Source: an uncultured archaeon
GTDB lineage: Archaea > Asgardarchaeota > Lokiarchaeia > Sigyniarchaeales > SOKP01
Direction: 5' to 3'
DNA length: 64,000 nucleotides
Assembly (NCBI GenBank): GCA_964486045.1
Contig: CAZALK010000019.1
Location: 28,976-92,975 of the forward strand
Below, in pieces: positions 24,848 to 47,085 of this stretch. A program made the translations under genes and the position numbers. Every line of letters starts with the position of its first letter. Position 1 is the first letter of the stretch. The notes beneath the pieces were generated by a model. It worked only from the letters and a program-made list of their open reading frames with translations, did not search any database and was not told where the DNA came from.

Positions 24848-26605
24848 TTAGTTATCTAAAGTGGTTACATCTGATTCTCCATGTCCCAATGCAATTTCTG
24901 CCTGCATTGAAATGGGAGGATTTACACACCAAATAAAATGACCATCTTCAATCTTTATCTTATGAGGTGTTTTACGCATACACTCATTGGTTCTTGCTTC
25001 TGATATACACCGAGGATTAAAGGTACACCCAGGAGGAGGTGCTATAGGGCTTGGAACTTCTCCCTTAATTACAAACCGTATTTCTTTATTACTAGGGTCG
25101 AGTTCGGTTCTAGATTCTAAAAGAGCTATTGTATAAGGGTGTGTAGGTCTAGAGAAAATTTGATCAGTTTCTCCAATTTCAACAAATTTGCCAAGATACA
25201 TAACGGCAACTCTATCAGCAATATGATTGACAACAGCTAAGTTGTGAGTTATAAACATAAAACCATACCCGTAAGTCTTCTGCAAATCTTTTAGTAAGTT
25301 AAGAATCTGAGCTTGAACAGATACATCTAAAGCAGAGGTAGGCTCATCTAGTATAATTAACTCAGGATTACTTGCTAGAGCTCTCGCAATAATTATTCTT
25401 TGTTTTTGACCACCAGAAAACTCATGAGGGTAACGATCCATGTGCTCTCGTTTTAATGATACCTCATCTAGCAATTTTAAGACACGTCTTCTTATTTCAT
25501 ATCCTTTGGTAATACCTAATAAATTTTTCAATGGTTCTGCTAATATATTAACAATTTTCATTCGAGGATTCAGAGAAGCATCAGGATCTTGATAAACAAT
25601 CTGTATTTTTCGCCTTAGAAATTTTGGATAATCGTCAGGGATGGTTTCATTATTAAATATAATTTCCCCCACTTCTTTTGGTATTAATCCTAAGATTGCA
25701 AGGGCAACCGTAGTTTTTCCGCAGCCACTTTCACCTACTAATCCTACTGTTTCCCCAGTTTTGATGTCAAAACTGATTCCATCAACAGCTTTAACAGAAC
25801 CAAATGATCTTTTGAGCATTCCTCCAATGAGAGGGTAATATACCTTTAAATTATTTACTTCTAATAATATTTTACCATGTTCAAGAATAGTAAGATCTCT
25901 AATATCTTCAAAAGATAATCTACTTTGAAAGATCAGTTTTAAAATAATACTTGCAATTATTGGAACCGGAATGCCAAAAAGTAAATTCAATGCAAAACTA
26001 CCAACAAATAACCTTCCTTGGTTAGCAAAAAGAAAATTTGCGAAAATAATACCAGGAATAACAGATAAAAAAATAATAATATTTCTTTCTTTTACAAACT
26101 GTATCTTATCTCCCCAATTCACATTAAAAACAGTAATACCAATCATAATGATAACAAGAAAGTAGAACATCATGCCAGAAGTCATCCAACTCTGACTTTG
26201 ATTACCACCTTGTGTCATTATGAACATATTTTCAAACATTATTCTAATGACAAATCCCGTCAAATAAATTAAAGCTTGTAAAATTGCGGTAAACAATAAA
26301 GATTCTTTAATATCTTTTTTATACCACAAATGTACTACATATGACGAAATTACTACTAAAAGTGCCACTCTTAAAAGATCCAAAATTAAGTTGTTTCCAA
26401 GAGTAATCTGGATTACAACTTCAAGACTTAAATTTATTAAAGTCCAAAACGAAACTATTTTTATAGCTGTACGGGCTGAATCATCCCACTCCTTCTTTCT
26501 AGCAGATCTTCTTATTAATAAAAATCCAATGAGTAATAAAAGAACATTAATGATGATAGTAAGCGTCAATTCTCCAATTGTTAAATTACCTATAATTTGC
26601 AGCAT
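24848..26605 (-). CDS. Oligopeptide ABC transporter ATPase (OppF/DppF-like) with N-terminal polytopic membrane domain
   Basis: GESGCGKTT, FSGGQKQR, LDEPTSALD, HPYT, GCTFNPRC Cys tail; about 230 hydrophobic N-terminal residues. Confidence 0.92.
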   Translation of the reverse strand: MLQIIGNLTIGELTLTIIINVLLLLIGFLLIRRSARKKEWDDSARTAIKIVSFWTLINLSLEVVIQITLGNNLILDLLRVALLVVISSYVVHLWYKKDIKESLLFTAILQALIYLTGFVIRIMFENMFIMTQGGNQSQSWMTSGMMFYFLVIIMIGITVFNVNWGDKIQFVKERNIIIFLSVIPGIIFANFLFANQGRLFVGSFALNLLFGIPVPIIASIILKLIFQSRLSFEDIRDLTILEHGKILLEVNNLKVYYPLIGGMLKRSFGSVKAVDGISFDIKTGETVGLVGESGCGKTTVALAILGLIPKEVGEIIFNNETIPDDYPKFLRRKIQIVYQDPDASLNPRMKIVNILAEPLKNLLGITKGYEIRRRVLKLLDEVSLKREHMDRYPHEFSGGQKQRIIIARALASNPELIILDEPTSALDVSVQAQILNLLKDLQKTYGYGFMFITHNLAVVNHIADRVAVMYLGKFVEIGETDQIFSRPTHPYTIALLESRTELDPSNKEIRFVIKGEVPSPIAPPPGCTFNPRCISEARTNECMRKTPHKIKIEDGHFIWCVNPPISMQAEIALGHGESDVTTLDN

Positions 26606-26677
26606 TTTAGATCGTCTCTCTTTTTTAAAATTTGTTCAAATTTTGTTTTTATTCCACTTTTTATTAAATCTTAGTTT

Positions 26678-29600
26678 TCATTTTTCAATTATTTGGCTCT
26701 CTGCTTTTTTTATTGATATCTCAGCAAGATCTTTATACTGAGGATCATAAAGATGACAAGCTACGAAATACTCGGGTTCTATTTCTAAGCTTCTAGGAAT
26801 CTCTGAATCGCATGGTTCAAAACAGTATTGACATCGTGGATGAAATCTGCAACCTGAAGGTGGATATATCAAGTTTGGTACTGTTCCGGGTATAACATCA
26901 AGTATTTTCCTCCTTTTTCCTACAACTGGTACAGCTGCTATAAGACCTCTAGCATAAGGATGATAAGGTGTTCTGAATAATTTTTCTATATCGCCGTATT
27001 CAACTATAAACCCGCAGTACATTACAGCAACGCGATCACACATTTTTGAAATAATTCCTAAATCATGAGTAATAAACAATATTGAGGTATTATATTTTTT
27101 CTTCAAGTCTTTCATTAATTTTAAAATCTGATTTTGAATTGTGACATCTAACGCGGTAGTTGGTTCATCCGCTATCAATAATTTAGGACTGCAAGCTAGT
27201 CCCATAGCAATCTGAACACGTTGGCGCATTCCTCCACTTAACTCATGTGGATACCTATCAAATATTAACCGTGGTGTTGGTATATTTAAATCTTTAAGCA
27301 TTTTTTGACTTCGTTTTCGAGCAACACTATAAATACTTGTGTTTTTTTTCACAGCTTCCACCAATAATTCATCTTCCAAATGCAATTGATACACCTCAGA
27401 GATTTGATCACCTATTTTAAACACCGGATTTAAGGAGTTAAGTGGATCTTGAAAAATCATGGTAATTTTACTTCCACGATAACGCAGAAATTCATCATCA
27501 GATTTTTGATGTAAATCTTCCCCTTCAAAAAAAACCTGCCCACTTTTTATTTCACCTGGAGGACGAACTAGTTTAAGGATAGATAAAGCAGTTACAGATT
27601 TTCCACAACCAGTTTCTCCTACAAGACCGAGAGTTTCACCTTCCTTGATTTGAAAAGAGACACCCTCAACAGCTTTTACAATCCCCTCTTCTGTGTTAAA
27701 ATAAGTTGTAAGATTTTTAACATCTAAAATAATTTTATTTCCATTGCCCACAGAGGTTGGTAGATCAATTTCCTCAATATCTTTTAGAGCTTTTCGGAAC
27801 TTTTCCATCACTGTTTTAGATGTATCTGGTGTAAATTTTATTCTTAAGGAAACAAAAACCGAGAGAATATAAATTCCAGTGGCGACGAACATTGAGATAC
27901 GAATATCATGTATTGTGAAAAACATTATAGAGAAAATATTTTGAAAAAATCCAAATATTCCCCCTCCGACAAGATCTCCAACCTTAAGGTGTTTTAAAGC
28001 AATTGTTATCATAAGCATTATAATTTGAGTACCAATTGCAAATCTTAAAGAATCAAGAAATTTCCTTTTATAAAGTTTTAAAACCAAAACTGTCCCAATA
28101 ACTATATTAATACCAGTAATTAACAAATCACTTAGCACAGCGATCCACCCTAAAGTTAATGGTACCAGTAATGCTAAAGATATTAATAATGTCTCAAGAA
28201 CTAAAAAGAGCCTCAATGGCAGATTGATAATAAGCCACGCAAGACTAATGCGAGCCGCTTTTTTTTTTGATTTATTCCACATTTTTACCGATCCCGCATA
28301 CCATCTTACAATTCTAGAGCCTACAAAAAACAAAATGGTTGAAAGAAGTACCACATTTGTAATAAACATAATGAATGGGTCATTTAACCAAACAAAAAGA
28401 TACAAATAAATTATAAAGAATGGTCCAATCCAAATCCAAAATGTTATTATCCCACCAAGTAAAATTGAACCTCGTAGCAACATTTTCGGAACACGATTAT
28501 GGACAGAATTCATCCTATCAAATAGTAAAATAAGGAAAAAATCACCAAGAACTAAGAAAAAAGCACAAGAAACGCTAAGAAAAAGAACTTCTGCTATTAG
28601 ATTTGGTCTTAATAGTATTGAAATTGCATAAGTTAATATCATAACACCCCATAAAAGTGCCGTAAGAATAGTATTGAACTTGTTATCAAATATCCTCTTT
28701 GATACTACTATTTCTTCGTCTGATAAATTAGATTTATTAAATTTCTTGATAAAATAAATATAAAATTTAAAAGAAATACCTTCTGGAAGTCGGATTGATC
28801 CCTCTCCCCTCTTAGTATCAGGAGTGGAGTCCTGGTATTCCAAGATGCTTTCTGTTTCATTATTATTGCCTATCTGTTTTTCTAATTCTAATTGTAAAAG
28901 TTGTTGAACTCGTTTTGAACTTTTTTCACTACTTTCTGGCAAAAACTTGGTTTTAAGGAGGTTGAAAAAGAAAATTATATATAAACCTGAAACTACAAGA
29001 ATTGTTACACGAATATCTTGCTTAAAAATGACAATTCCTAACCATCTATTCAAATACAATTCAAATATAATTTGTTGAAATGACCACAAGCCAAATACGA
29101 TCAACCCACTATAATACATTGAACTTTTAATAATACTTTTTGCAACCCGTTTATCAGTTGGCAGAGATCTGTTAACTATTGTGGTAATGAAAAAGTCAAT
29201 CGCAAGTGTTGCAAACGTCCATAATATACCAAGATTAAAAACATCTGGGGTTTCCATTGGAATGTTAAGAATCGGAATTGAAAGGAAAAATGCAGCGGCA
29301 ACCCATGTAACCACCATTAAATAAAAAAAGAATTTTCTAAAATTAAGATATGCTGAATCATCCTCTCTTGAAATTCTGGAAAAACCATACTTATTTATTA
29401 ACGGTTTATGTAAAAAATAAAATACCGTCACCATCAAAGCAAAAAAAAGGAGATCCTCGTTAAAAATTCTAAATATTGGACTAAATAATCCCAATACTTC
29501 AAAAAGAACTCTAATCCCAAAAATGATACCAAAGCTAATTAAACAAGTAACCAGGGAACCCTTTTTCACAATACTTTTTGTTGTTTTCTTATCTTTATAA

Positions 29601-29704
29601 AATAGATTTAAACTAAAAAGTAGAATTATTAGTAATCCGATTAGCATGCCTCCAACTTCTATTAAAGAATATCCAAAATTTGGAACATATGTTTGAAATA
29701 TCAT
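26678..29704 (-). CDS. Oligopeptide ABC transporter ATPase (OppD/DppD-like) with very large N-terminal membrane domain
   Basis: GETGCGKS, LSGGMRQR, ADEPTTALD, GCRFHPRC; about 620 residues of multi-TM N-terminus. Confidence 0.92.
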   Translation of the reverse strand: MIFQTYVPNFGYSLIEVGGMLIGLLIILLFSLNLFYKDKKTTKSIVKKGSLVTCLISFGIIFGIRVLFEVLGLFSPIFRIFNEDLLFFALMVTVFYFLHKPLINKYGFSRISREDDSAYLNFRKFFFYLMVVTWVAAAFFLSIPILNIPMETPDVFNLGILWTFATLAIDFFITTIVNRSLPTDKRVAKSIIKSSMYYSGLIVFGLWSFQQIIFELYLNRWLGIVIFKQDIRVTILVVSGLYIIFFFNLLKTKFLPESSEKSSKRVQQLLQLELEKQIGNNNETESILEYQDSTPDTKRGEGSIRLPEGISFKFYIYFIKKFNKSNLSDEEIVVSKRIFDNKFNTILTALLWGVMILTYAISILLRPNLIAEVLFLSVSCAFFLVLGDFFLILLFDRMNSVHNRVPKMLLRGSILLGGIITFWIWIGPFFIIYLYLFVWLNDPFIMFITNVVLLSTILFFVGSRIVRWYAGSVKMWNKSKKKAARISLAWLIINLPLRLFLVLETLLISLALLVPLTLGWIAVLSDLLITGINIVIGTVLVLKLYKRKFLDSLRFAIGTQIIMLMITIALKHLKVGDLVGGGIFGFFQNIFSIMFFTIHDIRISMFVATGIYILSVFVSLRIKFTPDTSKTVMEKFRKALKDIEEIDLPTSVGNGNKIILDVKNLTTYFNTEEGIVKAVEGVSFQIKEGETLGLVGETGCGKSVTALSILKLVRPPGEIKSGQVFFEGEDLHQKSDDEFLRYRGSKITMIFQDPLNSLNPVFKIGDQISEVYQLHLEDELLVEAVKKNTSIYSVARKRSQKMLKDLNIPTPRLIFDRYPHELSGGMRQRVQIAMGLACSPKLLIADEPTTALDVTIQNQILKLMKDLKKKYNTSILFITHDLGIISKMCDRVAVMYCGFIVEYGDIEKLFRTPYHPYARGLIAAVPVVGKRRKILDVIPGTVPNLIYPPSGCRFHPRCQYCFEPCDSEIPRSLEIEPEYFVACHLYDPQYKDLAEISIKKAESQIIEK

Positions 29705-29725
29705 CCGTTTAATTTTCCCTCATAT

Positions 29726-30736
29726 CTATATATGTAATCTAGGATCTAATGCATCCCGCAAACCATCACCTATTAGCATAAAACCAATCGCAGCTATTGC
29801 GATAAAAATTCCTGGCCAGAAAAGAGCCCACGTCGCGCTAGTCACATCTCTTCCATAATTAATATCCGTTCCCCAATCTGCAACAGTCGCATCGCTTAAT
29901 CCTAAATATGCTATGCTTGCAAAACCTAAGATTGCACCTCCCATTGATCCAAAGAAACCAACAATGATCGGTGACAGCGCATTCGGTAGGATATGTTTAA
30001 ACATAACCTTAAACTTCGCCGCACCACTAGTTATTGCTGCTCTGACATAAATGTTCTGCCTTACTTGTAAAACTAAGGCTCTCACCCATCTGGCACTACT
30101 TGGTATAAAGAATATACCATAGAGAAGCAGAAGATTATATAAATCTTGCCCTACCATAGGAGAGATAATTATAATAAGAATTAATAAAGGAAACGCGAAC
30201 CAAAAATCAACAAAACGCATGATAATCGAGTCAACGACTCCACCAAAATATGCTGAAATTGTCCCAACTACTATCCCACCTGCCGTAGAAATCAAAACTG
30301 GAAGTGCTGCTGCTGTAAGTGCTGTTCTAGCACCCCAAATTAATCTACCAAGAATATCGTACGCATATTTTGTCGTGCCTAACGGGTGTTCTGGAGATGG
30401 TGGCGCGAATGGTGTTCCACCCGGAGGAGTATAAGGTCTAGATAATAGTTGTAATGAGTATGGAGTAAGCCAGGCAGAGAATACAGCCAATATAGCTAAG
30501 AACAAGATCATTGCGATTCCCGTAATTGTTAACGGTGTAAGAAGGCGTCTAAATAGTTTTCGTTTGGATTTTATTTTACCTATTTCAAATTCAGTAGAAC
30601 TGAATTCAGGTTCTCGCCAACCAGGTATTAAATAGAACTTTAAATATTTTTTAATTTTCCCTTTATTCAAAGAAGGGAAACGTTCCTCAGTTAGTGATTT
30701 TTCAATTTGAATTTGGGTCATTTGATCACATTTCAA
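29726..30736 (-). CDS. dppC: Oligopeptide ABC transporter permease (OppC/DppC)
   Basis: HPLGT..DILGRLIWGART, YVRAA..GA..KHILPN EAA-type loop. Confidence 0.92.
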   Translation of the reverse strand: MKCDQMTQIQIEKSLTEERFPSLNKGKIKKYLKFYLIPGWREPEFSSTEFEIGKIKSKRKLFRRLLTPLTITGIAMILFLAILAVFSAWLTPYSLQLLSRPYTPPGGTPFAPPSPEHPLGTTKYAYDILGRLIWGARTALTAAALPVLISTAGGIVVGTISAYFGGVVDSIIMRFVDFWFAFPLLILIIIISPMVGQDLYNLLLLYGIFFIPSSARWVRALVLQVRQNIYVRAAITSGAAKFKVMFKHILPNALSPIIVGFFGSMGGAILGFASIAYLGLSDATVADWGTDINYGRDVTSATWALFWPGIFIAIAAIGFMLIGDGLRDALDPRLHI

Positions 30737-30740
30737 TTTT

Positions 30741-31805
30741 TTAATAGATTATTCGGGGATCGATAATTGTGTAAGCAACATCCGCTATGAGCGTTCCTGA
30801 AATTATTAGAATTGTAGAAAATACTAGAAAACCGTTTATTATCAAATAATCACCGGCTTGTATAGCTACTAGGAAATAATACCCCATACCTGAATAATTA
30901 AACGTAACTTCTACGAAAAGAGACCCTAAAAGTGCTGCGGCAGTTCCTCCTATAATAAGATGGCTTGTAGGGAGTATCCCGTTTCGTAGAGCATGTTTAT
31001 TTATTACATCTTTTTCTTTAACACCCTTAGCACGCGCAGTTCTAACATAATCCTGATCCAACACATCTAACATACTAGATCGCATTTGCCGAGTGACACC
31101 AGATAAAGATACAAAGATCATACAAAACACAGGGAGAATCAAATGCAGAAGAGTATCCCACAAATAAATTTGATCATTATATATAATACTATCAATAAAT
31201 CTAAATCCTGTACTAGCTCCTCCAGTAGGAACTGGATTCGCCAAAGAAGGATTGTTTGAAAATACAACTGGAATATAAAATCCACCATAAGAAAAATTTC
31301 TCACCGTAATGCCAATACCTATTTGTACAAGTGAAGCAATATAGAATACTGGAAATCCTGCTCCGAGGATGGCTATACCTCGAATTAGGCTATCCTTTGG
31401 TTTATTTCTATCTTTTGCTGAAGTAACTCCTAATTTAATGGAAATGATAGGAACGATAATAATCGAAAATAGCATTAATTCAATAGTTTTTGGAAAAATT
31501 GTTGCGATAACATGAATTACTTTTTCCCCAGGTAACACAATAAATGATTCACCCCAATCTCCAGTAAAGAAGTTTTTGAGATATATACCAAGTTTTACAT
31601 ACCATGGGTCATACCACCCAATTCTTCTCAATTCTCTTTCAAAAACGTTTCGGTCCATTACACCCGCAAGTTTATTCAATTCGGGACTTACAGACATCAA
31701 ATGAGATAAAATCCAAGTAAAAATTAACACTGCGATTAAAATAGGAAACATCAGTAATATTCGCTTAAAGACATATTTCATCATGTTCCGTGCTTGGCGA
31801 GCCAT
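30741..31805 (-). CDS. dppB: Oligopeptide ABC transporter permease (OppB/DppB)
   Basis: GDWGES, HLILP, RSSMLDVLDQDYVRTARAKG, IIDPRI. Confidence 0.93.
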   Translation of the reverse strand: MARQARNMMKYVFKRILLMFPILIAVLIFTWILSHLMSVSPELNKLAGVMDRNVFERELRRIGWYDPWYVKLGIYLKNFFTGDWGESFIVLPGEKVIHVIATIFPKTIELMLFSIIIVPIISIKLGVTSAKDRNKPKDSLIRGIAILGAGFPVFYIASLVQIGIGITVRNFSYGGFYIPVVFSNNPSLANPVPTGGASTGFRFIDSIIYNDQIYLWDTLLHLILPVFCMIFVSLSGVTRQMRSSMLDVLDQDYVRTARAKGVKEKDVINKHALRNGILPTSHLIIGGTAAALLGSLFVEVTFNYSGMGYYFLVAIQAGDYLIINGFLVFSTILIISGTLIADVAYTIIDPRIIY

Positions 31806-31912: not shown

Positions 31913-31924
31913 TTACGTTCGTAA
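31913..31924. promoter_or_regulatory. Palindromic operator candidate TTACGTTCGTAA in the divergent dppB/SBP promoter
   Basis: TTACG-TT-CGTAA; identical copy at 35345. Confidence 0.6.
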
Positions 31925-32038
31925 TGCAGTAAATTTGAAAACTTTAAATAGTTAATTGTCGTAACCTTATATTAACTTTACTAAGTAATGATTATTTAGT
32001 AAAAATATCTAAACTAAAAGAATTAAAGCTTTTAATAA

Positions 32039-34495
32039 GTGATAAGGAGAAAAAAAAAAATGAAAAAACTTTCAAAGTATTTAGCTTTTTTCTTATTGAT
32101 ATCTTCGATAATCATGCCAGTTCTTCCGGCCATTGCTGCACCTGTAATTGCAGCACCGATTACGTTTAGAAGTTCATCTTCAGCACAGATTGTTACAGGA
32201 AACTGGGATCCATGGTCAACTGATGGATATAACATTCTAATGACATACCGTGCTTACGCTCTGGAATTTCCTATGTCGGGATATGCTGACTATTGGGGAG
32301 GTCTTAGACCAGGCATCCCAAAAGAGGATGAATGGTGGCCAATCCTCGCTACCAGTTGGGAAACAACATATCGAGTAGGAAGCAATAATTCATTGGGCTT
32401 CAATAACTCTGGTGGAAGAGAAGCAATCACATTCTACCTCAGAGATGGAGTAAAATTCCATGATGGATCAGATTGGAATGCCAGTGTTATGAAATGGAAT
32501 ATCGATAGAGCGTATGTAATCTCAGGTAATTTGACCGGTAATGCAAATGGAATATACGATCAGAGAAATACAGCAAACATCTGGGATCCAGAATCAGATT
32601 GGTCTCAATATTACGACGAAAATTGGAATTTATCTGAATATGATGCCCCAGCTGCAACATCTGCTCCCTGGTCACCACCCGACCCAACTAGATATTCATA
32701 TTACTATCTTAGCGATCCTGACGGAGTTAGCCCAATAATTGCTAACAATTCTAACCCATACGGAGGTTGGGATTCTGTTGCACTTAATTTTATACATTGG
32801 GCTCCATATGATCAGATTCCGATGGTCAGATGGGTAGAAATAATCGATCCTACCGGACCTGATGGGGTTTCAGGCGGAACAGTCAAAGTTCATTGGAACA
32901 GTTATAACACCTATGGAATGGAAGGAGCTGTATGGACTCAAATGATGTCAATGGCGGCTTATGAGGCTGATTATTCTGACACAGCTATTTATGGGTATGC
33001 CAACGGCAATGATTTGATTGGTACTGGACCGTATAAATATGTTGAACATGATGAATTAGCAGATCGAGGTGTAATGGTAAAATTTGAAGATTATTGGAAC
33101 AGAACAGCCCTTGAAGCTGATGGTTGGTATGATGTCGAGCGATACGAGCTTGCTCAATTCGCACCAGGTGATTTAGGGAAAGATGCGCGAAATGCCGCAT
33201 TGCTTACTCACGAGATAGATTATGCCTATGATTCAATGACAATGCCTATCGATTACGCTGCTGTAATGGCTGACCCTAACATTAACTATTTTGAAGATTA
33301 CGTCTCAGAATATCAAACACAGATCACATTGAATTCTATCAATGAAACATTTTGGGGTGGTGGAAAGAATATCGGCTGGCCTGATTGGTGGCTAACTAAT
33401 TTTTCATATGTTGACCCTTATATTTTAAGTGTCTATTATGCCCAAGAGCAAGGAACCCCAAAAGCGCAAGGAATACCTATTGCCCTTCGCGAAGCACTTA
33501 CGTATGCATTTGATTATGACACAATGATAGATGTCGATTTGAGAGGTAGGGCAGTTCGAGGAACCGGCTTGGTAGGTGCAGCTAATATATTTAAAAATGA
33601 TAGTATAAATCTACCAACAACGAATCTCACCCATGCCCGACTAGCTTTACTTAACCAAAATGGCTCAGATCCACGTTCATTAACGCATGAATGGTGGCCT
33701 ATTAATTTTACAAAACGTTTGGAAGATGAAGGGTTGACCATCGCAAGTTCTGACACAGCCTGGAAAGCCACTGCAGCCTCGAATCCTATATTTACAGTTA
33801 ACTTTTACTGGGATCAACAACATCAAGAGTTAGCAGATCAATTCGAATTGGCTTGTAATCTGCTTGGAGTCGCTATAGTACAAGACGCAGATAATAAGGT
33901 TCCAGCCGGTACCAGTATTTGGAGTCACGCAGTGAGTTCTTATTGGACGAAAACTCTCGATGGAGTATCTTCGATTTGGTCGGCATCGGCTTGGGTTATG
34001 GATTATCACATGCCTATGACTATTCCAGAAGGATGGATCGCTGCAAATTATGGAGATCCCAATAAAGGGTCTTGGCGCAATTGGCCAGGGACTGTAACAG
34101 AATGGTGGCCAACATGGAACTTCGGATTTTCCTATGATACGGATATTGATAACTGGTTAGCTGTTATGTACATGTCAGAACCAATTCGTAAGAAAGAATA
34201 TATCGGTAAGATCGCTAACAAAGAGCAGAACGAGTTATTTCCGATGATCTATGCGTACCAGACTAAAGGTGGAGAAGCCATGTGGGCTAACTGGGATACG
34301 TGGTGGGTACTTGATAGGGATAATAGACCTGCTGGTCACTGGGGAGGTATCTCAGCGCAATTCCTGAGTTACACTCCAGGTGCTGGTGAGTTTCCTCTAA
34401 TTCCAGGCGCTCCATTACTTCTTACATTGACATTTACTGCAGCTTCGATGCTTGGTATTATCTATACTATAATGAGAAAAAAGAAACGTAATTAG
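32039..34495 (+). CDS. ABC transporter substrate-binding protein (family 5) with signal peptide and C-terminal IPG-TM-basic anchor
   Basis: LRDGVKFHDGSDWNA, IGTGPYK, LREALTYAFD; C-terminal LIPG+TM+RKKKRN; many NxS/T sequons. Confidence 0.92.
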   Translation: MIRRKKKMKKLSKYLAFFLLISSIIMPVLPAIAAPVIAAPITFRSSSSAQIVTGNWDPWSTDGYNILMTYRAYALEFPMSGYADYWGGLRPGIPKEDEWWPILATSWETTYRVGSNNSLGFNNSGGREAITFYLRDGVKFHDGSDWNASVMKWNIDRAYVISGNLTGNANGIYDQRNTANIWDPESDWSQYYDENWNLSEYDAPAATSAPWSPPDPTRYSYYYLSDPDGVSPIIANNSNPYGGWDSVALNFIHWAPYDQIPMVRWVEIIDPTGPDGVSGGTVKVHWNSYNTYGMEGAVWTQMMSMAAYEADYSDTAIYGYANGNDLIGTGPYKYVEHDELADRGVMVKFEDYWNRTALEADGWYDVERYELAQFAPGDLGKDARNAALLTHEIDYAYDSMTMPIDYAAVMADPNINYFEDYVSEYQTQITLNSINETFWGGGKNIGWPDWWLTNFSYVDPYILSVYYAQEQGTPKAQGIPIALREALTYAFDYDTMIDVDLRGRAVRGTGLVGAANIFKNDSINLPTTNLTHARLALLNQNGSDPRSLTHEWWPINFTKRLEDEGLTIASSDTAWKATAASNPIFTVNFYWDQQHQELADQFELACNLLGVAIVQDADNKVPAGTSIWSHAVSSYWTKTLDGVSSIWSASAWVMDYHMPMTIPEGWIAANYGDPNKGSWRNWPGTVTEWWPTWNFGFSYDTDIDNWLAVMYMSEPIRKKEYIGKIANKEQNELFPMIYAYQTKGGEAMWANWDTWWVLDRDNRPAGHWGGISAQFLSYTPGAGEFPLIPGAPLLLTLTFTAASMLGIIYTIMRKKKRN

Positions 34496-34721: not shown

Positions 34722-35237
34722 TTATATCACTTTTTTCGCTAGCACGAATTGTTTAGTTTTCATTCCACAAACTGCTCCAGAAATAGCTACACCAAATATA
34801 ATTATTATATCCAAATACCCCTCGATACGGGTAAATTTTAGGATAATAGGTTCGCTACTAAATCCAAACATTATCGCATAGAATATGAATCCTTCTGCGA
34901 TAACTAAGGGTACTAACCAAATTGAAGCTTTAATTCCATAGTGAGGAATATCTTCTTTATAAGTCAATAAAAAGCACACAAAAAATAACAATAAGGCAGG
35001 TAGAAAGAAGTTTCTAATATAGGTGGTATACGTCCAAAAGAGGATGGTTTTATCCATATCCACAAAAGAAATCCAATCACCTAATGAATCAGTCATCATA
35101 GTATTCGCTATTATTCCGTAATACCCCAAGAGAACAACAATGTAAGCCAATATTACACCCCCTTGTCTTCCCCAATCTATTTTAATATGTCCCTTTTCAT
35201 TCCCAGTGTTCAATTCGATTTGACTGTCCGCGTCCAT
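34722..35237 (-). CDS. 4-TM membrane protein of unknown function
   Basis: Hydrophobic 171-aa ORF. Confidence 0.8.
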   Translation of the reverse strand: MDADSQIELNTGNEKGHIKIDWGRQGGVILAYIVVLLGYYGIIANTMMTDSLGDWISFVDMDKTILFWTYTTYIRNFFLPALLLFFVCFLLTYKEDIPHYGIKASIWLVPLVIAEGFIFYAIMFGFSSEPIILKFTRIEGYLDIIIIFGVAISGAVCGMKTKQFVLAKKVI

Positions 35238-35344: not shown

Positions 35345-35356
35345 TTACGTTCGTAA
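35345..35356. promoter_or_regulatory. Palindromic operator candidate TTACGTTCGTAA
   Basis: Extends to TTTTACG-TT-CGTAAAA; upstream of 34722..35237(-). Confidence 0.6.
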
Positions 35357-35368
35357 AATTATCAAATT

Positions 35369-37177
35369 TTATTTTAAGAAATCATGTGTTTGAGTATCCC
35401 AAGTAGAATTTCTCGATTTTCCACTATCCCACTCTTCTTTCAGAAACCTCTTAAGCAATGTAGTATTGTGGACATTTGGTAATTCTTCTTTAAATTCGAT
35501 GAACCTTGGTACATGAAAATAGGCTAGATTATGATACAAGTGATCACTGAGTTCTCTATGAGTTATAGAACTATTTTTCACTTTAACAGCAACAATTTTG
35601 AAATCAATCTTTGAAACATTTCCATTAGAAATAGGAATAACAGAAGTTTCAATAATATTTGGGTGAGACTTTGCCATTCGCTCAATATCTCTGGTAAAAA
35701 TCGTATCATTGCCTTTTTGTATAACTTCTGTTCTTTTTCCTTTGAAATAGATGTATCCCTCATAATCTTTATAACCGAAATCGCCTGAATTAACCCAATT
35801 ATTCTCTCCTATTGTAACATCTTCATTTTCTGGTTTTTTATAGTATTCAAATACAGCCCCTGATTTTCTTCGAACAATTATTTCCCCAATATTATTAGGA
35901 CCAGGAGGTAACTCATTTCCTTCTGAATCTACAATTTTCAATTCGATGAAATCTAATGGTTTTCCAATTGAACCGATTTTGCCACCTTTAGATCCGATTT
36001 TATTCATTGTTATGCCAATCCCTTCATAATGCGACCAACACTCGTATAAAAAAATACCAAACCTTTTTTCAAATGCATTCCACAAATCTATTTCTGTCCC
36101 AAATCCAAAGGCGAATTTGATAGAATGAACGCGGTCATTTACTTTAGCTCTTTTATCCAATAGATCTGTTAAATAACCTCCAAAATAACAAAAACAAGTA
36201 GGTTCATATTTTTTAATTTCTTTCCAAAAAGTTGAAGGATTAAAAGCTTCTGTGATTATTATTGATTTATTATAAAATAGTGAGGGTATTATTGCAAAAA
36301 TATGGGTAACCCCATGAGACAATGGTAATGGGCAATAAATTTTTGCTATTTCATTTAAACCTATTTTATTTAATTCAAATCCTATTGTTATACCAGCTAA
36401 AACAACATTCCTATACAAAACTCCTTTGGGTTTTCCAGTGCCACCTGAAGTATATAGTATTTCAATAGGATCGTCATTATATATATTAATATTAGGATTT
36501 TTTACATTTGAAGTAAAAATCACCTGAAAGTTTTTGTATTTATTATTAAAATTGAAATCTGAAGGTGCATTTCGAATCAAAATTTTCTTTATTTTATGTA
36601 GTCTGTTTTCAATCTTCTCAAAATTTGCTAGAAATTCATAATCCAAAATTAAAATTTCAGTATCACTGTCATCCAGTATATGTTCTAATTCATATTTTTC
36701 CAATGAGTTATCAAGAGGTACAAAAATACCTCCTGCTTTAGCTATACCAAACCAAGTAAAAATGAAATCTGGGCAGTTATTCATCAGCAATGATACTATT
36801 GGCTTTTTTAAATCCAATTCACCCATTAATTCTAAAATCCCATGTGCAACTCTATTTGAACTTTTATTTATCTCTTGATATGAATAAACTTCATCCTTAA
36901 AGTAAAGGAATGGTTGATGTTTATTTTCTACAGCCTTAATTTCTAATAATTTTGGAAGTGTCGCATTTTCAATACCAAATTCTCTTAGGATTTTAGAACG
37001 ATCGTCATTTCTGCTTATTATCAAAGATTCATCTTCTATTTCAATTATTACTTCTTCATCATCATGAAATGGAAATAAACCGTCTTTATAGACCTTGCTT
37101 GGAATGTAGATCCAAGCACTTTTATAACCACCATTACCAGATTTTTTAGTAGTAATTTTTCCCTTGGCTTCTCTCAA
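35369..37177 (-). CDS. AbrB/SpoVT-like domain fused to a degenerate CaiC-like acyl-CoA ligase
   Basis: N-terminal KSAWIYIPSKVYKD..FPFHDDEEVIIEIEDESLII; YTSGGTGKPKGV, SGDFG, VPRFIEF. Confidence 0.8.
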   Translation of the reverse strand: MREAKGKITTKKSGNGGYKSAWIYIPSKVYKDGLFPFHDDEEVIIEIEDESLIISRNDDRSKILREFGIENATLPKLLEIKAVENKHQPFLYFKDEVYSYQEINKSSNRVAHGILELMGELDLKKPIVSLLMNNCPDFIFTWFGIAKAGGIFVPLDNSLEKYELEHILDDSDTEILILDYEFLANFEKIENRLHKIKKILIRNAPSDFNFNNKYKNFQVIFTSNVKNPNINIYNDDPIEILYTSGGTGKPKGVLYRNVVLAGITIGFELNKIGLNEIAKIYCPLPLSHGVTHIFAIIPSLFYNKSIIITEAFNPSTFWKEIKKYEPTCFCYFGGYLTDLLDKRAKVNDRVHSIKFAFGFGTEIDLWNAFEKRFGIFLYECWSHYEGIGITMNKIGSKGGKIGSIGKPLDFIELKIVDSEGNELPPGPNNIGEIIVRRKSGAVFEYYKKPENEDVTIGENNWVNSGDFGYKDYEGYIYFKGKRTEVIQKGNDTIFTRDIERMAKSHPNIIETSVIPISNGNVSKIDFKIVAVKVKNSSITHRELSDHLYHNLAYFHVPRFIEFKEELPNVHNTTLLKRFLKEEWDSGKSRNSTWDTQTHDFLK

Positions 37178-37214: not shown

Positions 37215-37226
37215 TTACTACCGTAA
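37215..37226. promoter_or_regulatory. Operator candidate TTACTACCGTAA upstream of the AbrB-ligase gene
   Basis: TTAC-N4-GTAA, 9/12 identical to the 31913/35345 sites, about 38 bp before the start. Confidence 0.45.
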
Positions 37227-37415
37227 TTTTATTGAGTAATAATAATAGCTTTAAAATCTTTTCCATTGTTTTGAATTATATATCAACAAAATTTGACACA
37301 AGTTTGTATTAATGTTCGAGATATCATAACGAACTTAAAACTAATACAAAAACTATGGTTTTTAATTAAAAAAAGATGACATTAAATAATTTATGAATAA
37401 ACTGGGGTTCAAAAA

Positions 37416-38066
37416 TCATAGTTTTTTACCAATGGCAATTCCCTCATGAATTGCTTCTAACATCCTTCGAGCCTGTGAACAATCTCCTATCGAATGTATA
37501 TTTGGAAGCTTCTCTTTTAACGTATTGAGTAATTTAATATTAGGTTCCATACCTACAGCTACACCCTTATATCCTGCTTCAGCGCATAGTCTTGCTGAAT
37601 CTCCAAATTTTTTAACTAACTCTTCCACTTCCTCAGTGGTTAATTCTCTTGGCATTTCACCTCTTCCATTAAAACCCGGAAGAGGGGAAGGTGCTACATG
37701 TTGCATTCCTGTCAAGCCTGAATGACAGTATCTACCTTCATTAGATAATTCCATAACCGCAACAGACCCATTATTGTTAATTGAATCTGATAATTTCTGT
37801 AACCCTTGTAAGTACTTGTCGTCATCAGTAGCAATCATACCTTTACCTGCCGTACTTCTAACAGAATAATCTACAATGGCCAATTCTATTCAGATAAAAC
37901 CTGCGCCTCCTTTAGCTCTTTCTGCATAATAATCTACATATTTGTCAGTAACCTATCCATCGTGGCCAAATCTTGAATTCATAAGCGCCATCATTATTCT
38001 ATTGCTAATTTCCACATCTCCAATCGTAATTGGTTGGATTAAATATTTTACATCCTCTGAAATCAT
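37416..38066 (-). pseudogene. NADH:flavin oxidoreductase (OYE / 2,4-dienoyl-CoA reductase type) pseudogene
   Basis: MISEDVKYLIQPITIGDVEISNRIMMA..DG*VTDKYVDYYAERAKGGAGFI*IE (stops at 37953-55 and 37890-92); barrel joins directly at GYKGV to the terminal AVGMEPN..IGDC..AIHEG. Confidence 0.9.
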
Positions 38067-38204
38067 AATTTTACTTACATTTATGTTTTATTTACAGATT
38101 TCAATGTTAATTTTATTAAAGATTTCTAATAATTATTATTATACGTTTTTCATTATTTTTACTAATATTTAATAATTCATTTTGAAAAATTTAGATTGTT
38201 GTGA

Positions 38205-40475
38205 TTGTACATGGCAAAAAGCGAAGATGTTAAGCTTATAAGGACTGTATGTCCAGCTCATTGTGGAATTGATGGCTGTGGAATAATTGCTCACTTAAAA
38301 GGAGATCATATAGTTAAATTGGAACCTGCTGATTTTCCAAACGAAAAAGATCGAAGGATATGTCTCAGAGGGTTAACCAGTTTAGAGATTACTTATCACT
38401 CAGATCGTATTCAATATCCAATGAAACGAATAGGTGAAAGAGGTGAAGGGAAATTTGAAAGAATATCATGGGAAGAAGCGTATGATTTAATTGTTTCTAA
38501 GTTTAAATCTATATCTGAAAAATATGGATGGAAATCGATTGGATGGGTTTTAGGCGGTCCTGGGGCAGGGACCACAAAATTTGGTGCATACCTTAGATTA
38601 GCTAGCTTAACTCAAAGTACACGTGTGAGTGCGTGGGGATATGGGGATGCGGGGTTACCTTGCGGAAGTAGGATAATTTTAGGGCATCAATTTCCTTATT
38701 TGTATTTACATGGGGAATTTTGGCAAAGAAAATATCCTGAATTACTTGTAATATGGGGTACGAACCCTGCTGAATCAATGCCTTTACAAAATATGAGAAA
38801 GGTCTTGGATGCCAAAGAATATGGAACTCAAGTGATAGTCATAGATCCTCGATTCACAGTTACTGCATCAAAAGCAGATGAATATATCGGATTAAAACCT
38901 GCTACAGATAGTGCGTTAGCACTAGGAATTATGAATGTTATATTTCAAAATAATTTATATGATAGAACTTTTATCTTAGAACATACAAATTGTCCCTATC
39001 TAGTGAGAATTGATACTGGAAAGATGTTACGGGGAAAAGAGATTGATGCTCAAAAGGCAGATGCATATGTGATATGGCATGAACCTTCTAACTCTCATAA
39101 AACCCTATCTCGGACAAACGTTAAGGAAGCGAATCTTACCGGAACTTACAACATAAACGGAATTGAATGTAAAACAGTGTTTCAGTTATTAATGGACTTA
39201 GCAGGTGAATATACTCCAGAAATAACTGAAAAAATTACAGGAGTAGATAAAGAACTTATCATTAAACTAGGAAAAAGAATAGGTAATTCAAAAAAAATTA
39301 ATTTCTTAACTCATATGGGTTTCACGAGAACTTATCATGGAGATATTTCTCTGAGAGGTGTAATTTCTGTAGCTGCAATTACTGGAAATATAACTACATC
39401 AGTAAGTTCTGGTAATATCCCCGGTATTCTAAATTGGAATCCGTTCTTGAAGGCAATTCCCGACAAGCCTAGCTTTCATAGAATGGGTATTCTCAATCTT
39501 TATGATGCGGTGATTTCTGGGAATCCATATCCTATTAAGGCTCTTTGGTTTGCTTTCATCAATTTTTTGAACCAATGCGCTAACTCTAACAAAATTATTG
39601 AAAAATTTTACCCTAGTGTAGAGTTTATTGTACAAACTGAACTATTTATGACTCCTTCTGCGCGATACGCTGATTTATTGCTTCCAGTGTGCAGTTTCTT
39701 AGAATTTTCAGATTTTATAGCTCAGCCCTATCCGTATGCCCAACTTCAACAGAAAGTAATTGAACCATTATATGAATCTAAATCTGATGTTACTATTGTT
39801 GCTGAGCTTGCTCAACGTCTTGGATACGGGGAATATTTTAAGGGTGGAGAAGAGGGGATGATAGACATTATTATGAAAACTCGCTCTTTTGAAGGAACAT
39901 CTCGGGAAAAGTTAAAATCTCAAGCATATATGTTACCACCACTTCCAGAAGGGGCTACATTTCCTATGAATTTCAGAACACCTTCGGGAAAAATCGAATT
40001 ATATGCAGAGCAGTTAGTAGAAGATGGAGAGGCCCTTCCGGTTTATTTGCCACCAATAGAAGCTCCAATTACTTCAGGTAAAATGAAATATCCTTTAACT
40101 CTAGTCAATGGTCATACTCGATTTCGTACACATTCCATGTTTGCGAATGTGAAATCTTTATTAAACTTGAATCCTGAACCTATTGTTGACATTAATCCAT
40201 TTGATGCTGAAAAACGAAATATATCTAATGATGATAAAGTTACTGTTTTTAATGATCGAGCTCGAACTACACTTCGGGCTAGAATTACTGAGGGAATCCG
40301 ACCGGGAGTACTTAATATTACTGAAGGTTGGTGGATAGAACAGTTTGAAGAGGGAAGCTTAAATCACCTTACTCACGATATCATTAATCCAGTGCAAGAT
40401 AAAGTCTATGAACCAAATATGCATATGAATGATGTTGCAGTTGAAATCACTAAGAATGAGGGTGCAAAAAAATGA
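38205..40475 (+). CDS. Molybdopterin (DMSO reductase family) oxidoreductase catalytic subunit, no Tat signal
   Basis: CPAHCGIDGC..CLRG FeS motif, WGTNPAES, VIDPRFT, ADLLLP, TPSGKIE, RTHSMF. Confidence 0.93.
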   Translation: MYMAKSEDVKLIRTVCPAHCGIDGCGIIAHLKGDHIVKLEPADFPNEKDRRICLRGLTSLEITYHSDRIQYPMKRIGERGEGKFERISWEEAYDLIVSKFKSISEKYGWKSIGWVLGGPGAGTTKFGAYLRLASLTQSTRVSAWGYGDAGLPCGSRIILGHQFPYLYLHGEFWQRKYPELLVIWGTNPAESMPLQNMRKVLDAKEYGTQVIVIDPRFTVTASKADEYIGLKPATDSALALGIMNVIFQNNLYDRTFILEHTNCPYLVRIDTGKMLRGKEIDAQKADAYVIWHEPSNSHKTLSRTNVKEANLTGTYNINGIECKTVFQLLMDLAGEYTPEITEKITGVDKELIIKLGKRIGNSKKINFLTHMGFTRTYHGDISLRGVISVAAITGNITTSVSSGNIPGILNWNPFLKAIPDKPSFHRMGILNLYDAVISGNPYPIKALWFAFINFLNQCANSNKIIEKFYPSVEFIVQTELFMTPSARYADLLLPVCSFLEFSDFIAQPYPYAQLQQKVIEPLYESKSDVTIVAELAQRLGYGEYFKGGEEGMIDIIMKTRSFEGTSREKLKSQAYMLPPLPEGATFPMNFRTPSGKIELYAEQLVEDGEALPVYLPPIEAPITSGKMKYPLTLVNGHTRFRTHSMFANVKSLLNLNPEPIVDINPFDAEKRNISNDDKVTVFNDRARTTLRARITEGIRPGVLNITEGWWIEQFEEGSLNHLTHDIINPVQDKVYEPNMHMNDVAVEITKNEGAKK

Positions 40476-41056
40476 GTAATAATAAACTCTTAGGTATGGT
40501 TATTGATCAAGAAAGATGTATCGGATGTGAAGCTTGTAGTATAGCATGTAAAGTTGAAAACAACTCAGTTGATTATTGGATAAAAGTAGAAACTCAGGGA
40601 GGTGCTAATAAAGATACTCCAGGAGGAAGTTTCCCAAACTTAACAATGGAATTTCTTCCTAAATTATGTAATCATTGTGAAAATCCCCCTTGCGTCGATT
40701 CTTGTCCAGAAGATGCTCTTCAAAAAAGAAATGATGGGATTGTGATCTTAGATCAAGAGTTATGTTCAGGATGTCAGGCTTGTTTAACTGCCTGTCCTTA
40801 TAATATCATAGTATTTAATGAGAATGATAATGTTGTTGAAAAATGCCACTTTTGCGCTCATAGAGTTGATCAAGGGCTTGAGCCGTTTTGTTTGATTTGT
40901 TGTGAAGGTCAAGCGATACACTTTGGAGATTTAAATGACGCCAATAGTGTTGTTTCAAAACTAATATCTGGGAATAATATTTTTCAACTAAAAACTGAAA
41001 AGGGTACAAATCCAAGCGTTTATTATTCCCCTCCCAGACCAAAAAGAAGATTATAG
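40472..41056 (+). CDS. DmsB/NrfC-like 4x[4Fe-4S] subunit
   Basis: CIGCEACSIAC, CNHCENPPCVDSCP, CSGCQACLTACPY, KCHFC; ATGA overlap. Confidence 0.95.
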   Translation: MSNNKLLGMVIDQERCIGCEACSIACKVENNSVDYWIKVETQGGANKDTPGGSFPNLTMEFLPKLCNHCENPPCVDSCPEDALQKRNDGIVILDQELCSGCQACLTACPYNIIVFNENDNVVEKCHFCAHRVDQGLEPFCLICCEGQAIHFGDLNDANSVVSKLISGNNIFQLKTEKGTNPSVYYSPPRPKRRL

Positions 41057-41227: not shown

Positions 41228-42535
41228 CTATTTTACATCTTCATTTTCAATTATCATTGCAGTTCCTTGACCCCCACCGCAGCACATTGTAGCCAGACCA
41301 TATTGAGCGTTTTTCTCTTTTAGGATTCTCGCCAAGCTTCCAACTATTCTTGGACCTGTTGCCGCGATTGGATGACCAAGAGCAATTCCACCACCTTTAA
41401 CATTAACATCATCTAATCTGTCGTCTAATCCCATCTCATGAACCCAGTTAAGACCTACAATAGCAAATGCTTCGTTGATTTCCCAGTAGGCAATGTCATC
41501 AGTTGTTAATCCCGCATGTTTTAGTGCCATCCACGATGCTGGAACTGGGCCTCTCCCCATAACTGTAGGATCTACCCCTCCGAAACCAATTGAAACTATA
41601 CGCGCTAATGGGTTTAAGTTATGCTTTTTCATTGCATCTTCAGACATTAGCAATAATGTTGCTGCTCCTGCGTTAGTTGGACATGAATTCCCTGCAGTTA
41701 CTAATCCCTGTTCGGTTTCAAATGCTTTAACATATTCTTTTTTGGTCATTAGTGGCCTGTAGTATCCGCCAGCCCAACCAGGTTTACTTAGTGCTCTCAA
41801 ATCTTTTGTTCCTTCGTAAGTAGCATTTTTTCTGACTGAAGTATCATGTTCAATTAACATTGGGGTATTCTCATCACCTTCGGAATGTGCCATTACAGGG
41901 ACAATTTCACCCTTGAAAAAGCCTTCCTCTTGAGCTTTCGAAGCTAATTGATGACTGCGAACAGAAAACCTATCATTATCCTCTTTTGTAAAAATACCCG
42001 CATTCATTTCTGAGAGTTTTTGAGCCGTCTGTAGCATTGATCCCGTACAACGGAAATCAACAACATCATCTACAAAAAACTCATGACCTTTCCTCATAGC
42101 AGGGGGGATCTCTCTAGATGTTGGGGGTTTTGATCGTGACATAGTAGCGTTATTTTTTCCCGAAGCTATAACAACATCAGAATATCCTAGTGCAATATTA
42201 TTATACGCTATAGAAGCACAGGTCATTCCTGAACCACACTGCCTATCTAATGCGATAGATGATACTTTCGTTGGAAATTTAGATAAAAACATTGGATATC
42301 TTCCCCCAAGGGTTACGTATTCATAATTAAAATGAGTCGCTCCTATATAAAATTCATCCACATCTTCAGGTTTAACTTTATCTTTTAATCTATTATCAAA
42401 CATTTCATTTAACGTTAAGGCAGTTAATTCATCAGGCCTTAAATTTCCTAAAACGTCTCTGGGTGGTTCTCTTGGGCGAGATCTTGAAAATGGAGTTCTT
42501 ATAAAATCTGTAATATAAACATCTCTTATTTTCAT
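41228..42535 (-). CDS. Thiolase (acetyl-CoA C-acyltransferase), catalytic residues intact
   Basis: DRQCGSG, NEAF, GHPIAATG, CCGGGQG. Confidence 0.93.
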   Translation of the reverse strand: MKIRDVYITDFIRTPFSRSRPREPPRDVLGNLRPDELTALTLNEMFDNRLKDKVKPEDVDEFYIGATHFNYEYVTLGGRYPMFLSKFPTKVSSIALDRQCGSGMTCASIAYNNIALGYSDVVIASGKNNATMSRSKPPTSREIPPAMRKGHEFFVDDVVDFRCTGSMLQTAQKLSEMNAGIFTKEDNDRFSVRSHQLASKAQEEGFFKGEIVPVMAHSEGDENTPMLIEHDTSVRKNATYEGTKDLRALSKPGWAGGYYRPLMTKKEYVKAFETEQGLVTAGNSCPTNAGAATLLLMSEDAMKKHNLNPLARIVSIGFGGVDPTVMGRGPVPASWMALKHAGLTTDDIAYWEINEAFAIVGLNWVHEMGLDDRLDDVNVKGGGIALGHPIAATGPRIVGSLARILKEKNAQYGLATMCCGGGQGTAMIIENEDVK

Positions 42536-42578
42536 TTTTTTTTAACCTCTTCTTATTATTTGTATTTCATATTTAATT

Positions 42579-43913
42579 TTAAATATCTAAATTCTCAATT
42601 ACTACTGCAGTACCTTGCCCGCCACCACATGACATAGCAGCAAGTCCATATTTTGCTTTTTTCTCTTTAAGAATTCTTGCTAATGTTGCCGTTATTCTCA
42701 GCCCTGTAGCGGATGCTGGATTCCCTATTGCTATTGCTCCTCCATGAATATTCATTTTGTTTTCCCAATCAATCCCTAATTTATTGGCAGCATTAAGTGC
42801 TACAATGCTAAAAGATTCATTGATTTCCCAGAAATCGATATCTTGGACTTTTAAGTTTGCATGCTTTAAAGCCATTTGAGAAGCCGGTACTACGCCTCTC
42901 CCTCGTACAGTTGGATCTACTCCTGCAAACCCAATTGAGATAACTTTCGACATGGGTTTTAAGTTGTATTCTTCAAGTGCTTTTTTAGACGCTAATAAAC
43001 AAAGTGAAGCTCCATCACAAAGAGGAGAACTATTCCCTTCCGTTATAATACCTTTTTCTGTTCCAAATTTTGCGATATATGCATCTTTGGCGAATATAGG
43101 ATTTTTATAACCACCTGCCCATCCTGGAGTGCTTAGAGGGGGTGTATTAGCAATATCATCTAGTGTAATTGCTTTCTTTATAGAATTATCTTCTTCAATC
43201 TCAATTTGGTTATCAGATTCGCCTGCTTTATGACCTTTAACTGACATTATTTCTTCTTTGAAATATCCATTCTCTTGAGCTTTTTCTGCTAAATTTTGAC
43301 TTCGTGAGCTAAATGTGTCCATTTCATCTTTTGTGAAAAGATCTGCCTCCTCCTCTACAAGTTTCTGAGCTGCTTGAAATAATGACCGACTTGTTTTCCA
43401 ATCATATAAATCATCATTATACCACTTACTTTCTGGATCAAGCATTAGTTTATCAGGAGGCCATCCAAATACTTTCACTTTTCCATCGTAAGTATGGAGT
43501 GGTACCCTTGTAAATTGATCAAAACCTATAGATGCCACCACATCGGAATAACCCATTGAAATATTTGCAAAACCAACGTGTAAAGTTGCCATCCCGGAAC
43601 CGTCTTGTTTGTCAAATACCGTTGCAGGCACATGAAAAGGAAAATTTGCCATAAAAATAGGAATTCTTCCCCCAAATGTCCCATGCTCATGCTGTAATAA
43701 AGCACTGCCTACCAAAACCTCACTAACATTCTCACGCTTGAGTGTACTACCTTTATTAGGTATTTTATTGTCAAACATGTCTATTAAAACACGAGCTGCA
43801 AGTTCTGGACCCCATTGTTTACTAAAAACAGCATCATCGGGTTCCAGAGGATTTGATTGAGAAAATGGTGTCCTTACATGGTCTACTAAATATACTTCTT
43901 TTGCTTCTTTCAT
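42579..43913 (-). CDS. Thiolase-like protein lacking the nucleophile Cys and catalytic His
   Basis: DKQDGSG, NESF, GNPASATG, SCGGGQG. Confidence 0.9.
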   Translation of the reverse strand: MKEAKEVYLVDHVRTPFSQSNPLEPDDAVFSKQWGPELAARVLIDMFDNKIPNKGSTLKRENVSEVLVGSALLQHEHGTFGGRIPIFMANFPFHVPATVFDKQDGSGMATLHVGFANISMGYSDVVASIGFDQFTRVPLHTYDGKVKVFGWPPDKLMLDPESKWYNDDLYDWKTSRSLFQAAQKLVEEEADLFTKDEMDTFSSRSQNLAEKAQENGYFKEEIMSVKGHKAGESDNQIEIEEDNSIKKAITLDDIANTPPLSTPGWAGGYKNPIFAKDAYIAKFGTEKGIITEGNSSPLCDGASLCLLASKKALEEYNLKPMSKVISIGFAGVDPTVRGRGVVPASQMALKHANLKVQDIDFWEINESFSIVALNAANKLGIDWENKMNIHGGAIAIGNPASATGLRITATLARILKEKKAKYGLAAMSCGGGQGTAVVIENLDI

Positions 43914-45284: not shown

Positions 45285-45388
45285 ATTCTATACTCTTTTT
45301 TATTTCTTTTTTTGTATCTCATTTTCATTCCTTAGAATTCTACAAATCAGTGATGCAGAACTTGCTGTTTGAATTCAAATTATTTTAG

Positions 45389-45412
45389 GTAAGACTTTAA
45401 TAAAAGTCTTAC
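45389..45412. promoter_or_regulatory. Inverted repeat, probable TA autoregulatory operator
   Basis: GTAAGACTTT-aata-AAAGTCTTAC, 12 bp before the antitoxin start. Confidence 0.75.
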
Positions 45413-45424
45413 TTCTTTTATTTT

Positions 45425-46071: not shown

Positions 46072-46174
46072 CTACCAAGGTTTTACACGCGAATTTTAAA
46101 ATAATATAAATAATAGAAAGATGATTTTATCTATAAAGCAGTAAAAGTAAATATTAAATACGGAAGGATTTTTA

Positions 46175-46964: not shown

Positions 46965-47085
46965 ACTTTTCCTTATTTAGATTTTAACTGGTTTTAAAAA
47001 TCTCATTTACAACATTCTCGAAAGAGCATTGATTATTTAACTCATTAAATTCGATTATTTACTCGGGGATGAGGTTCATTGAAAT

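Follow-up and report, generated by a model that had tools for sequence, protein, structure and literature searches.

The window analysed here, a 64,000-nt stretch of a Lokiarchaeia contig, carries at positions 35369..37177 (minus strand) an ORF of 602 aa in which, from the frame itself, its homologues and its profile matches, an AbrB-like domain is fused to a CaiC-like ANL body. The ORF has a TTG start, at the residue at which its homologues also begin, and internal stops are absent. Residues 81–438 match Pfam AMP-binding (E 8e-52), and the top NCBIfam matches are CaiC-type ligases (PRK06155, PRK08008), all well under their cut-offs (251 versus 722 bits). The alignment-based model of the full-length protein (pLDDT 88.7) has the two-subdomain ANL fold (Foldseek E 2e-38, TM 0.85 by target, against anthranilate-CoA ligase): a large N-terminal subdomain, aa 81–478 (35744..36937, minus strand), placed by Pfam, the model and Foldseek, and a small C-terminal subdomain, aa 482–595 (35393..35734, minus strand), placed by a profile match and the model. 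Pfam, NCBIfam and the model agree with the in-frame fusion to a full CaiC-like ANL fold that an earlier note on this DNA had described. In public annotation, members of the family go under the names of AMP-binding protein or carnitine-CoA ligase. The homologues place the genome in Lokiarchaeia/Promethearchaeota.

Conservation within the protein is highest in its N-terminal domain, aa 1–58 (37004..37177, minus strand), an AbrB/MazE-like swapped-hairpin domain as judged from homologues, modelling, fold searches and dN/dS. It is modelled (mean pLDDT 86) as a β-β-α-β-β unit, two β-hairpins (strands 7–12 and 19–24, and 43–48 and 51–56) being joined by a short helix (27–31) and a loop; the β1–β2 loop and adjacent residues are nearly invariant. 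Prediction as a homodimer gave a score of 0.47 against 0.00 for the best control, with contacts agreeing to at least 94 % between runs and pLDDT of at least 69; 20 of 30 solved pairs attain the score mark used, as does one of 23 single chains, and resemblance to solved AbrB dimers may contribute to the score. The predicted contacts (β1–β3', β2–β2' and β4–β4') follow the order of strand pairing in the VapB2 barrel (PMC3326315). Neither the whole protein nor its first 58 aa matches Pfam AbrB (PF04014), and at loose thresholds five of 69 family members match Pfam MazE_antitoxin weakly (best E 8.5e-4). In fold searches the 62-aa domain was closest to 5itj (an archaeal histone-like protein), VapB, SpoVT, AbrB, C56 and MazE, but at weak scores (Foldseek E of 0.5 or more, Z of 3.9 or less, rmsd 2.5 over 46 residues), which are typical of such a short chain; an ESM Atlas feature search and a PDB sequence search with the domain returned no usable match. 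We take the domain to belong to the AbrB fold, and the earlier note's reading of the first ~56 aa as AbrB/SpoVT-like agrees with the modelled swapped-hairpin dimer and with best fold matches that, at weak scores, are AbrB-fold proteins. Stand-alone relatives of the domain number several hundred proteins of 55–90 aa, and 22 of 60 match Pfam MazE_antitoxin at loose thresholds. Such AbrB-like proteins (P0136–P0270) have a D-S-x-F-P-F motif, fall mostly under Pfam thresholds and are common in Bathyarchaeia; one of their loci (L163) adjoins an IS605-type TnpB gene.

The first search returned at least 120 homologues of 47–83 % identity, full length in nearly all cases, and the fusion is present in 168 of 177 full-length homologues. 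The family comprises about 170 proteins forming a single clade, monophyletic with respect to unfused ligases (support 100/100). Among 400 genomes of the phylum the N-domain occurs in 600-aa frames only within Lokiarchaeia and in short frames outside the class, and a scan of all GTDB species yielded 58 fused loci, every one archaeal, the next matches being unfused bacterial ligases of 27–34 % identity. Some NCBI records of fused proteins are labelled as other Asgard groups and one as crenarchaeal. The gene is found in 52 of 151 Lokiarchaeia genomes, in several of them in two or three copies. Pooled dN/dS comes to 0.115 in the N-domain and to 0.18 in either ANL subdomain, so that the fusion is neither peculiar to a single genome nor relaxed. 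By these ratios the family is under purifying selection; with dN/dS at or below 0.22 in every pair compared, and so many full-length homologues, a pseudogene or an assembly artefact was ruled out.

Within the ANL body, the alignment indicates that the residues of the chemistry drift while those of the adenosine pocket are held almost invariant. The roles of motifs A3, A7, A8 and A10 were taken from published work (PMC10510592), and the comparison set was the 24 nearest unfused ligases, 27–34 % identical and mostly from anaerobic bacteria. When five catalytic features were scored (P-loop, A4 His, A8 Arg, A8 G-E-N and A10 Arg/Lys), all 24 unfused ligases kept five, 60 fused proteins kept three or fewer and the protein studied here kept one. 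Its motifs, at aa 242 (A3), 380 (A5), 480 (A8) and 566–574 (A10), read as the earlier note had quoted them. The A3 phosphate loop (36425..36454, minus strand), of pattern (S/T)(S/T)G(S/T)TGxPK, is intact in 44 of 177 fused proteins against 24 of 24 unfused ones; here it is broken by Gly246 in place of Thr, with Lys251 kept. The A8 hinge Rx(D/K)xxxxxxG and its loop (35702..35740, minus strand) are broken by Lys481 (for Arg) and Asn490, and G-E-N, which here has become N-D-T, survives in four of 177 fused proteins compared with all 24 unfused. At the A10 basic position 573 (35459..35461, minus strand) the protein has Thr, and its lineage has E, L, F, M, T and others; Lys or Arg is present in 21 of 177 fused proteins versus 24 of 24 unfused relatives. 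Since the parent-type ligases carry Arg there in 21 cases and Lys in three, the residue lost was a basic one, most likely Arg: the loss noted earlier stands, but a ‘catalytic Lys’ was the wrong parent state. The A5 region (36023..36043, minus strand) is altered as quoted but is weaker evidence of erosion, for Glu385 is invariant, Trp381 is kept and intact fused members read W-S at 381–382; His383 occurs only in the clade of our protein. Failing three motifs (A3, A8 and A10), the protein is on sequence grounds outside the active CaiC-like ligases, although A10 and A5 are variable among intact relatives also, so that sequence alone is no proof of inactivity. The ribose-binding A7 motif of active ligases, (S/T)GD, is retained as S-G-D (35780..35788, minus strand), and the near-invariant residues among the 177 family proteins are Glu385 (177), Lys251 (175) and Asp466 (173). 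Acyl-pocket positions are fixed inside clades and different between them (Arg292 in 33/33 clade-B proteins, His383 in 16/16 clade-A proteins), which suggests different ligands. Separately, a widespread group of CaiC-like ligases has Arg for Lys at A10 with the other motifs intact (G000 C4:225883, 227702 and 231671; L096–L116), a substitution of which we found no description in the literature.

Just downstream of a BRE/TATA-like element recognized by eye (37250..37264, minus strand), at the inferred transcription start, lies a TTAC-N4-GTAA palindrome (37215..37226), identified from the upstream alignment and pattern counts as a candidate self-operator; in that alignment both the element and an extra TTAC half-site (37236..37239, minus strand) are conserved in the protein's clade. 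Pattern searching placed a second copy (35345..35356) 5' of the gene for a 171-aa membrane protein with no Pfam match (34722..35237, minus strand), upstream of its BRE/TATA-like element, and a third (31913..31924) between the divergent genes for a family-5 solute-binding protein (32060..34495, plus strand) and an operon of oligopeptide-type ABC permeases and ATPases (24848..31805, minus strand). By position and palindrome, all of these genes are candidate regulon members. At the membrane-protein and solute-binding genes the palindrome stands about 10–25 nt upstream of BRE/TATA, and archaeal activators bind just upstream of these elements. A fourth match in the window (54343) is inside a coding region and was taken as chance. 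A TTAC-N3-GTAA variant at about 31965–31985, downstream of the solute-binding gene's TATA-like element and conserved at three other loci (L041, L042, L066), may be a second, weaker site, and elsewhere in the same genome (G000 C20:75954-79864) two more palindrome copies accompany a duplicated promoter region and two permease genes, flanked as at 31913, and are possible in-trans targets or an assembly repeat.

Across the family, a perfect palindrome occurs in 30 of 48 upstream regions of the regulator gene, mostly 30–55 nt from its start, versus six among the 476 other ORFs at these loci and 14 among 4800 shuffles; this enrichment is specific to a spacer of 4. Other intergenic sites number 47 at spacer 4 against 4, 12, 4 and 1 at spacers 2, 3, 5 and 6, and paired sites and half-sites are frequent at these loci. 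In the protein's own clade the palindrome precedes the membrane-protein gene in 10 of 12 cases and the solute-binding gene in eight of 10; homologues of the membrane protein have a perfect site in seven of nine cases directly behind the regulator and in none of 21 elsewhere. Twelve clade-B self-promoters have degenerate sites only, and in 20 of 21 clade-B loci the palindrome stands before an operon of DUF2284, corrinoid and RACo genes, often with CoA-transferase genes close by. A DUF2284-corrinoid operon that lacks the regulator gene has no palindrome; a further genome (G125) has a palindrome before DUF2284 and no detected regulator, on a contig that ends 390 nt past the DUF2284 gene. The palindrome also lies upstream of divergent and of catalytically intact members. 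These loci are related, so the counts overstate their independence, and the switch of neighbours between clades is a stronger argument than the counts. The tracking of the regulator gene by the palindrome supports, independently, the predicted DNA binding. No genome-wide excess of the palindrome was seen in the organism's own genome (109 sites, against 75–145 for other spacers), which rules out a global regulon and makes the predicted one small and local. With a more stringent pattern, 33 same-genus genomes that have the gene yielded 34 sites, versus five in 21 without it (control pattern, 60 versus 45), but this pattern was derived from these very loci and some genomes of another genus that lack the gene have four sites, so it was not counted as evidence.

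Other features of the neighbourhood deserve mention. Directly upstream of the regulator is a broken NADH:flavin oxidoreductase (OYE) gene (about 37416–38070, minus strand) with an in-frame stop near its start and a large internal deletion; relatives have intact 643-aa copies in the same place (L066). Genes for a DMSO-reductase-family molybdoenzyme and a 4Fe-4S subunit (38205–41056, plus strand) point away from the regulator and keep their place next to it in seven loci; no perfect palindrome is present before them in the window. A beta-oxidation-type cluster (41228–43913, minus strand; 44157–51501; 57298–58575), syntenic in another locus (L035), encodes tandem thiolases, a ferredoxin-like protein, two MaoC-type hydratase-like proteins and dehydrogenases. 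The oligopeptide-type ABC ATPases (26678–29704 and 24848–26605, minus strand) are fused behind multi-pass membrane regions of about 660 and 260 aa without Pfam matches, and small PIN-like, HEPN-like and nucleotidyltransferase-like genes in a row (45658–46964, plus strand) look by eye like toxin–antitoxin modules. The DUF2284, corrinoid and RACo/AcsV operon, conserved at L059, L067, L078 and 18 other loci, includes no obvious methyltransferase and is often found beside genes for two subunits of a CoA-transferase; the partner that is missing may be DUF2284.

Erosion marks the 60 fused proteins with three or fewer features, in contrast to the 24 complete unfused ligases, but the earliest-branching fused members are not eroded. 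Three fused proteins found in a search seeded with divergent members (P0273, P0312 and P0327) have all five catalytic features, as has a fourth in another genome (G004). When trees were built with the motif columns left out and rooted on unfused ligases, these proteins branched earliest, the eroded fused proteins forming a single clade (97/87) with P0273 as its sister (96/92). Placing the intact fused members with bacterial ligases was rejected (AU p 5e-35), and the AU test of the four as a grade versus a clade gave p 0.14. Intact members lead or adjoin clusters of beta-oxidation type, encoding an NMO-family oxidoreductase, a short-chain dehydrogenase, enoyl-CoA hydratase, a ChsH2-type OB protein and thiolase. 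The four are candidates for the state of a bifunctional ancestor, and the simplest history from these sequences would be fusion to a working ligase, after which the A8 loop, A10 and the P-loop were lost in that order, the later steps being less resolved. Tentatively, the family could form a series from enzyme to regulator, in which early ligases, still active, used the acyl-adenylate or acyl-CoA they produced to control the catabolic operon of which they were part, and later members lost CoA transfer, adenylation and ATP binding in turn and became sensors for unrelated operons, acting as self-repressors and activators through the AbrB fold; we regard this as possible rather than likely.

We hypothesize that the 602-aa protein is a one-component transcription regulator with a pseudo-ligase as its sensor, and consider this probable, DNA binding, lost activity, ligand and direction of regulation all being inferred. 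Two AbrB-like domains would interlock as a swapped-hairpin barrel on TTAC-N4-GTAA, the regulator most likely being a dimer or tetramer. The ligase body, presumably no longer making acyl-CoA in this lineage, would be retained as an effector-binding module, and a ligand in the pseudo-active site would move the small subdomain, as in the ANL rotation between half-reactions, and so alter DNA binding. Self-repression would act through the site that overlies the inferred start on the downstream side of TATA, and control of a small number of neighbouring uptake or catabolic genes through sites immediately upstream of BRE/TATA, a placement like that of activators. The retained residues are consistent with adenosine and an acyl group, and the effector has a chance a little short of even of being the carboxylic acid of the pathway accompanied by an adenine nucleotide, for example AMP. 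Acyl-CoA is a less likely effector, and some other compound more doubtful still. The first is favoured over acyl-CoA because the derived proteins are probably unable to make acyl-adenylate, because such intermediates are seldom free, and because the entry of acyl-CoA depends on the A8 loop, which would have been lost first.

Could the protein instead be a bifunctional trigger enzyme, still adenylating or ligating an unusual acid with non-canonical residues while also regulating transcription? The completeness of the four early-branching fused proteins would suit this reading, as would a parent family that itself deviates from the textbook A10 Lys and a whole ANL fold that is under purifying selection and models well. 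We nevertheless think it unlikely, for the variety of residues at position 573 in the protein's lineage and the near-complete loss of G-E-N among the fused proteins are joined by Glu or bulky residues in the P-loop of many members; a conserved substitute basic residue is absent, Lys576 occurring in unfused ligases too, and where a few close relatives have Lys573, they are nested within Glu-bearing proteins and their P-loop is broken. It also seems improbable that the ANL body of a DNA-binding regulator serves for oligomerization, steric effect or protein docking and senses no small molecule. The near-invariant residues are those of the adenosine pocket, and the acyl-pocket residues, fixed within clades, differ between clades with different neighbours, which argues against such a role; for it are the common paired sites and half-sites, and the fact that AbrB dimers usually depend on a further domain for their pairing on DNA. 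Least credible, indeed very improbable, is that some other regulator owns the palindrome, the N-domain not binding this DNA and serving only to dimerize the pseudo-ligase: the link between palindrome and gene is correlative, and only one of four stand-alone relatives of the N-domain has a one-mismatch palindrome upstream, but no gene family other than the regulator is common to all loci, the site tracks the gene across clades whose neighbour genes are unrelated, as far as the earliest branches, and is gone from the same neighbour genes where the regulator is not adjacent, and the β1–β2 loop is almost invariant.

A one-component regulator with a pseudo-ligase sensor has partial parallels. The partner domain in SpoVT is a small GAF domain, and BirA is an active biotin ligase fused to a winged-helix DNA-binding domain, with its acyl-adenylate product as co-repressor. 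BirA may serve as a model for the intact early members, although its ligase fold and DNA-binding domain are unrelated to those described here. SpoVT of Bacillus subtilis (PDB 2w1t) resembles our protein in layout, with a swapped-hairpin N-domain and a C-terminal sensor-type domain. AbrB, MazE, VapB2 and Sso7c likewise have the swapped-hairpin N-domain, the antitoxins pairing with toxins, and VapB2 dimers bind palindromic self-operators (PMC3326315); unlike our protein, none of these or SpoVT has a 540-aa enzyme fold. The CaiC-like ATP-dependent acyl-CoA ligases are the source of the C-terminal body, from which the protein differs by its extra N-domain and the loss of four of five catalytic features. 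As a proposed enzyme-derived one-component regulator, it would by analogy work like BzdR of Azoarcus sp. CIB (PMC3602430) and, in archaea, PspR of Haloferax mediterranei (PMC10948481), and belongs to neither family. BzdR is bacterial and joins an XRE helix-turn-helix to a shikimate-kinase fold, whereas the protein here is archaeal and joins an AbrB-type barrel to a full ANL fold, in a family where natural intact intermediates appear to survive. PspR is an archaeal repressor that originated from a metabolic enzyme (PEP synthetase-like), as proposed here, but its enzyme fold and DNA-binding domain are different and it lacks the AbrB fusion. FadR of Sulfolobus acidocaldarius (PMC6449355) acts at a small number of semi-palindromic sites to regulate a local gene cluster for lipids and beta-oxidation, a regulon as small and local as that predicted here; it differs in its TetR fold, in not being enzyme-derived and in an acyl-CoA ligand that has been shown experimentally.

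No description of an AbrB–ANL regulator was found in the literature, in which subscription journals were thinly covered, and this agrees with the earlier note, which knew of no characterized regulator of this architecture. If our reading is confirmed, the ANL adenylate-forming fold would join the few enzyme folds that transcription factors have taken over as effector domains, here paired with an AbrB barrel, in a lineage-specific Asgard archaeal regulator with a predicted operator and regulon. The current annotation of the family as ligases would inflate ligase counts in metabolic reconstructions of Lokiarchaeia. Judged by its sequences, the family looks like a record of the conversion of an enzyme into a gene regulator that senses a metabolite. 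Intact members exist alongside partly and fully eroded ones, with one operator in common, so that the route by which an enzyme gains a DNA-binding domain and then loses its activity, which for BzdR has only been rebuilt artificially, would become testable with natural proteins.
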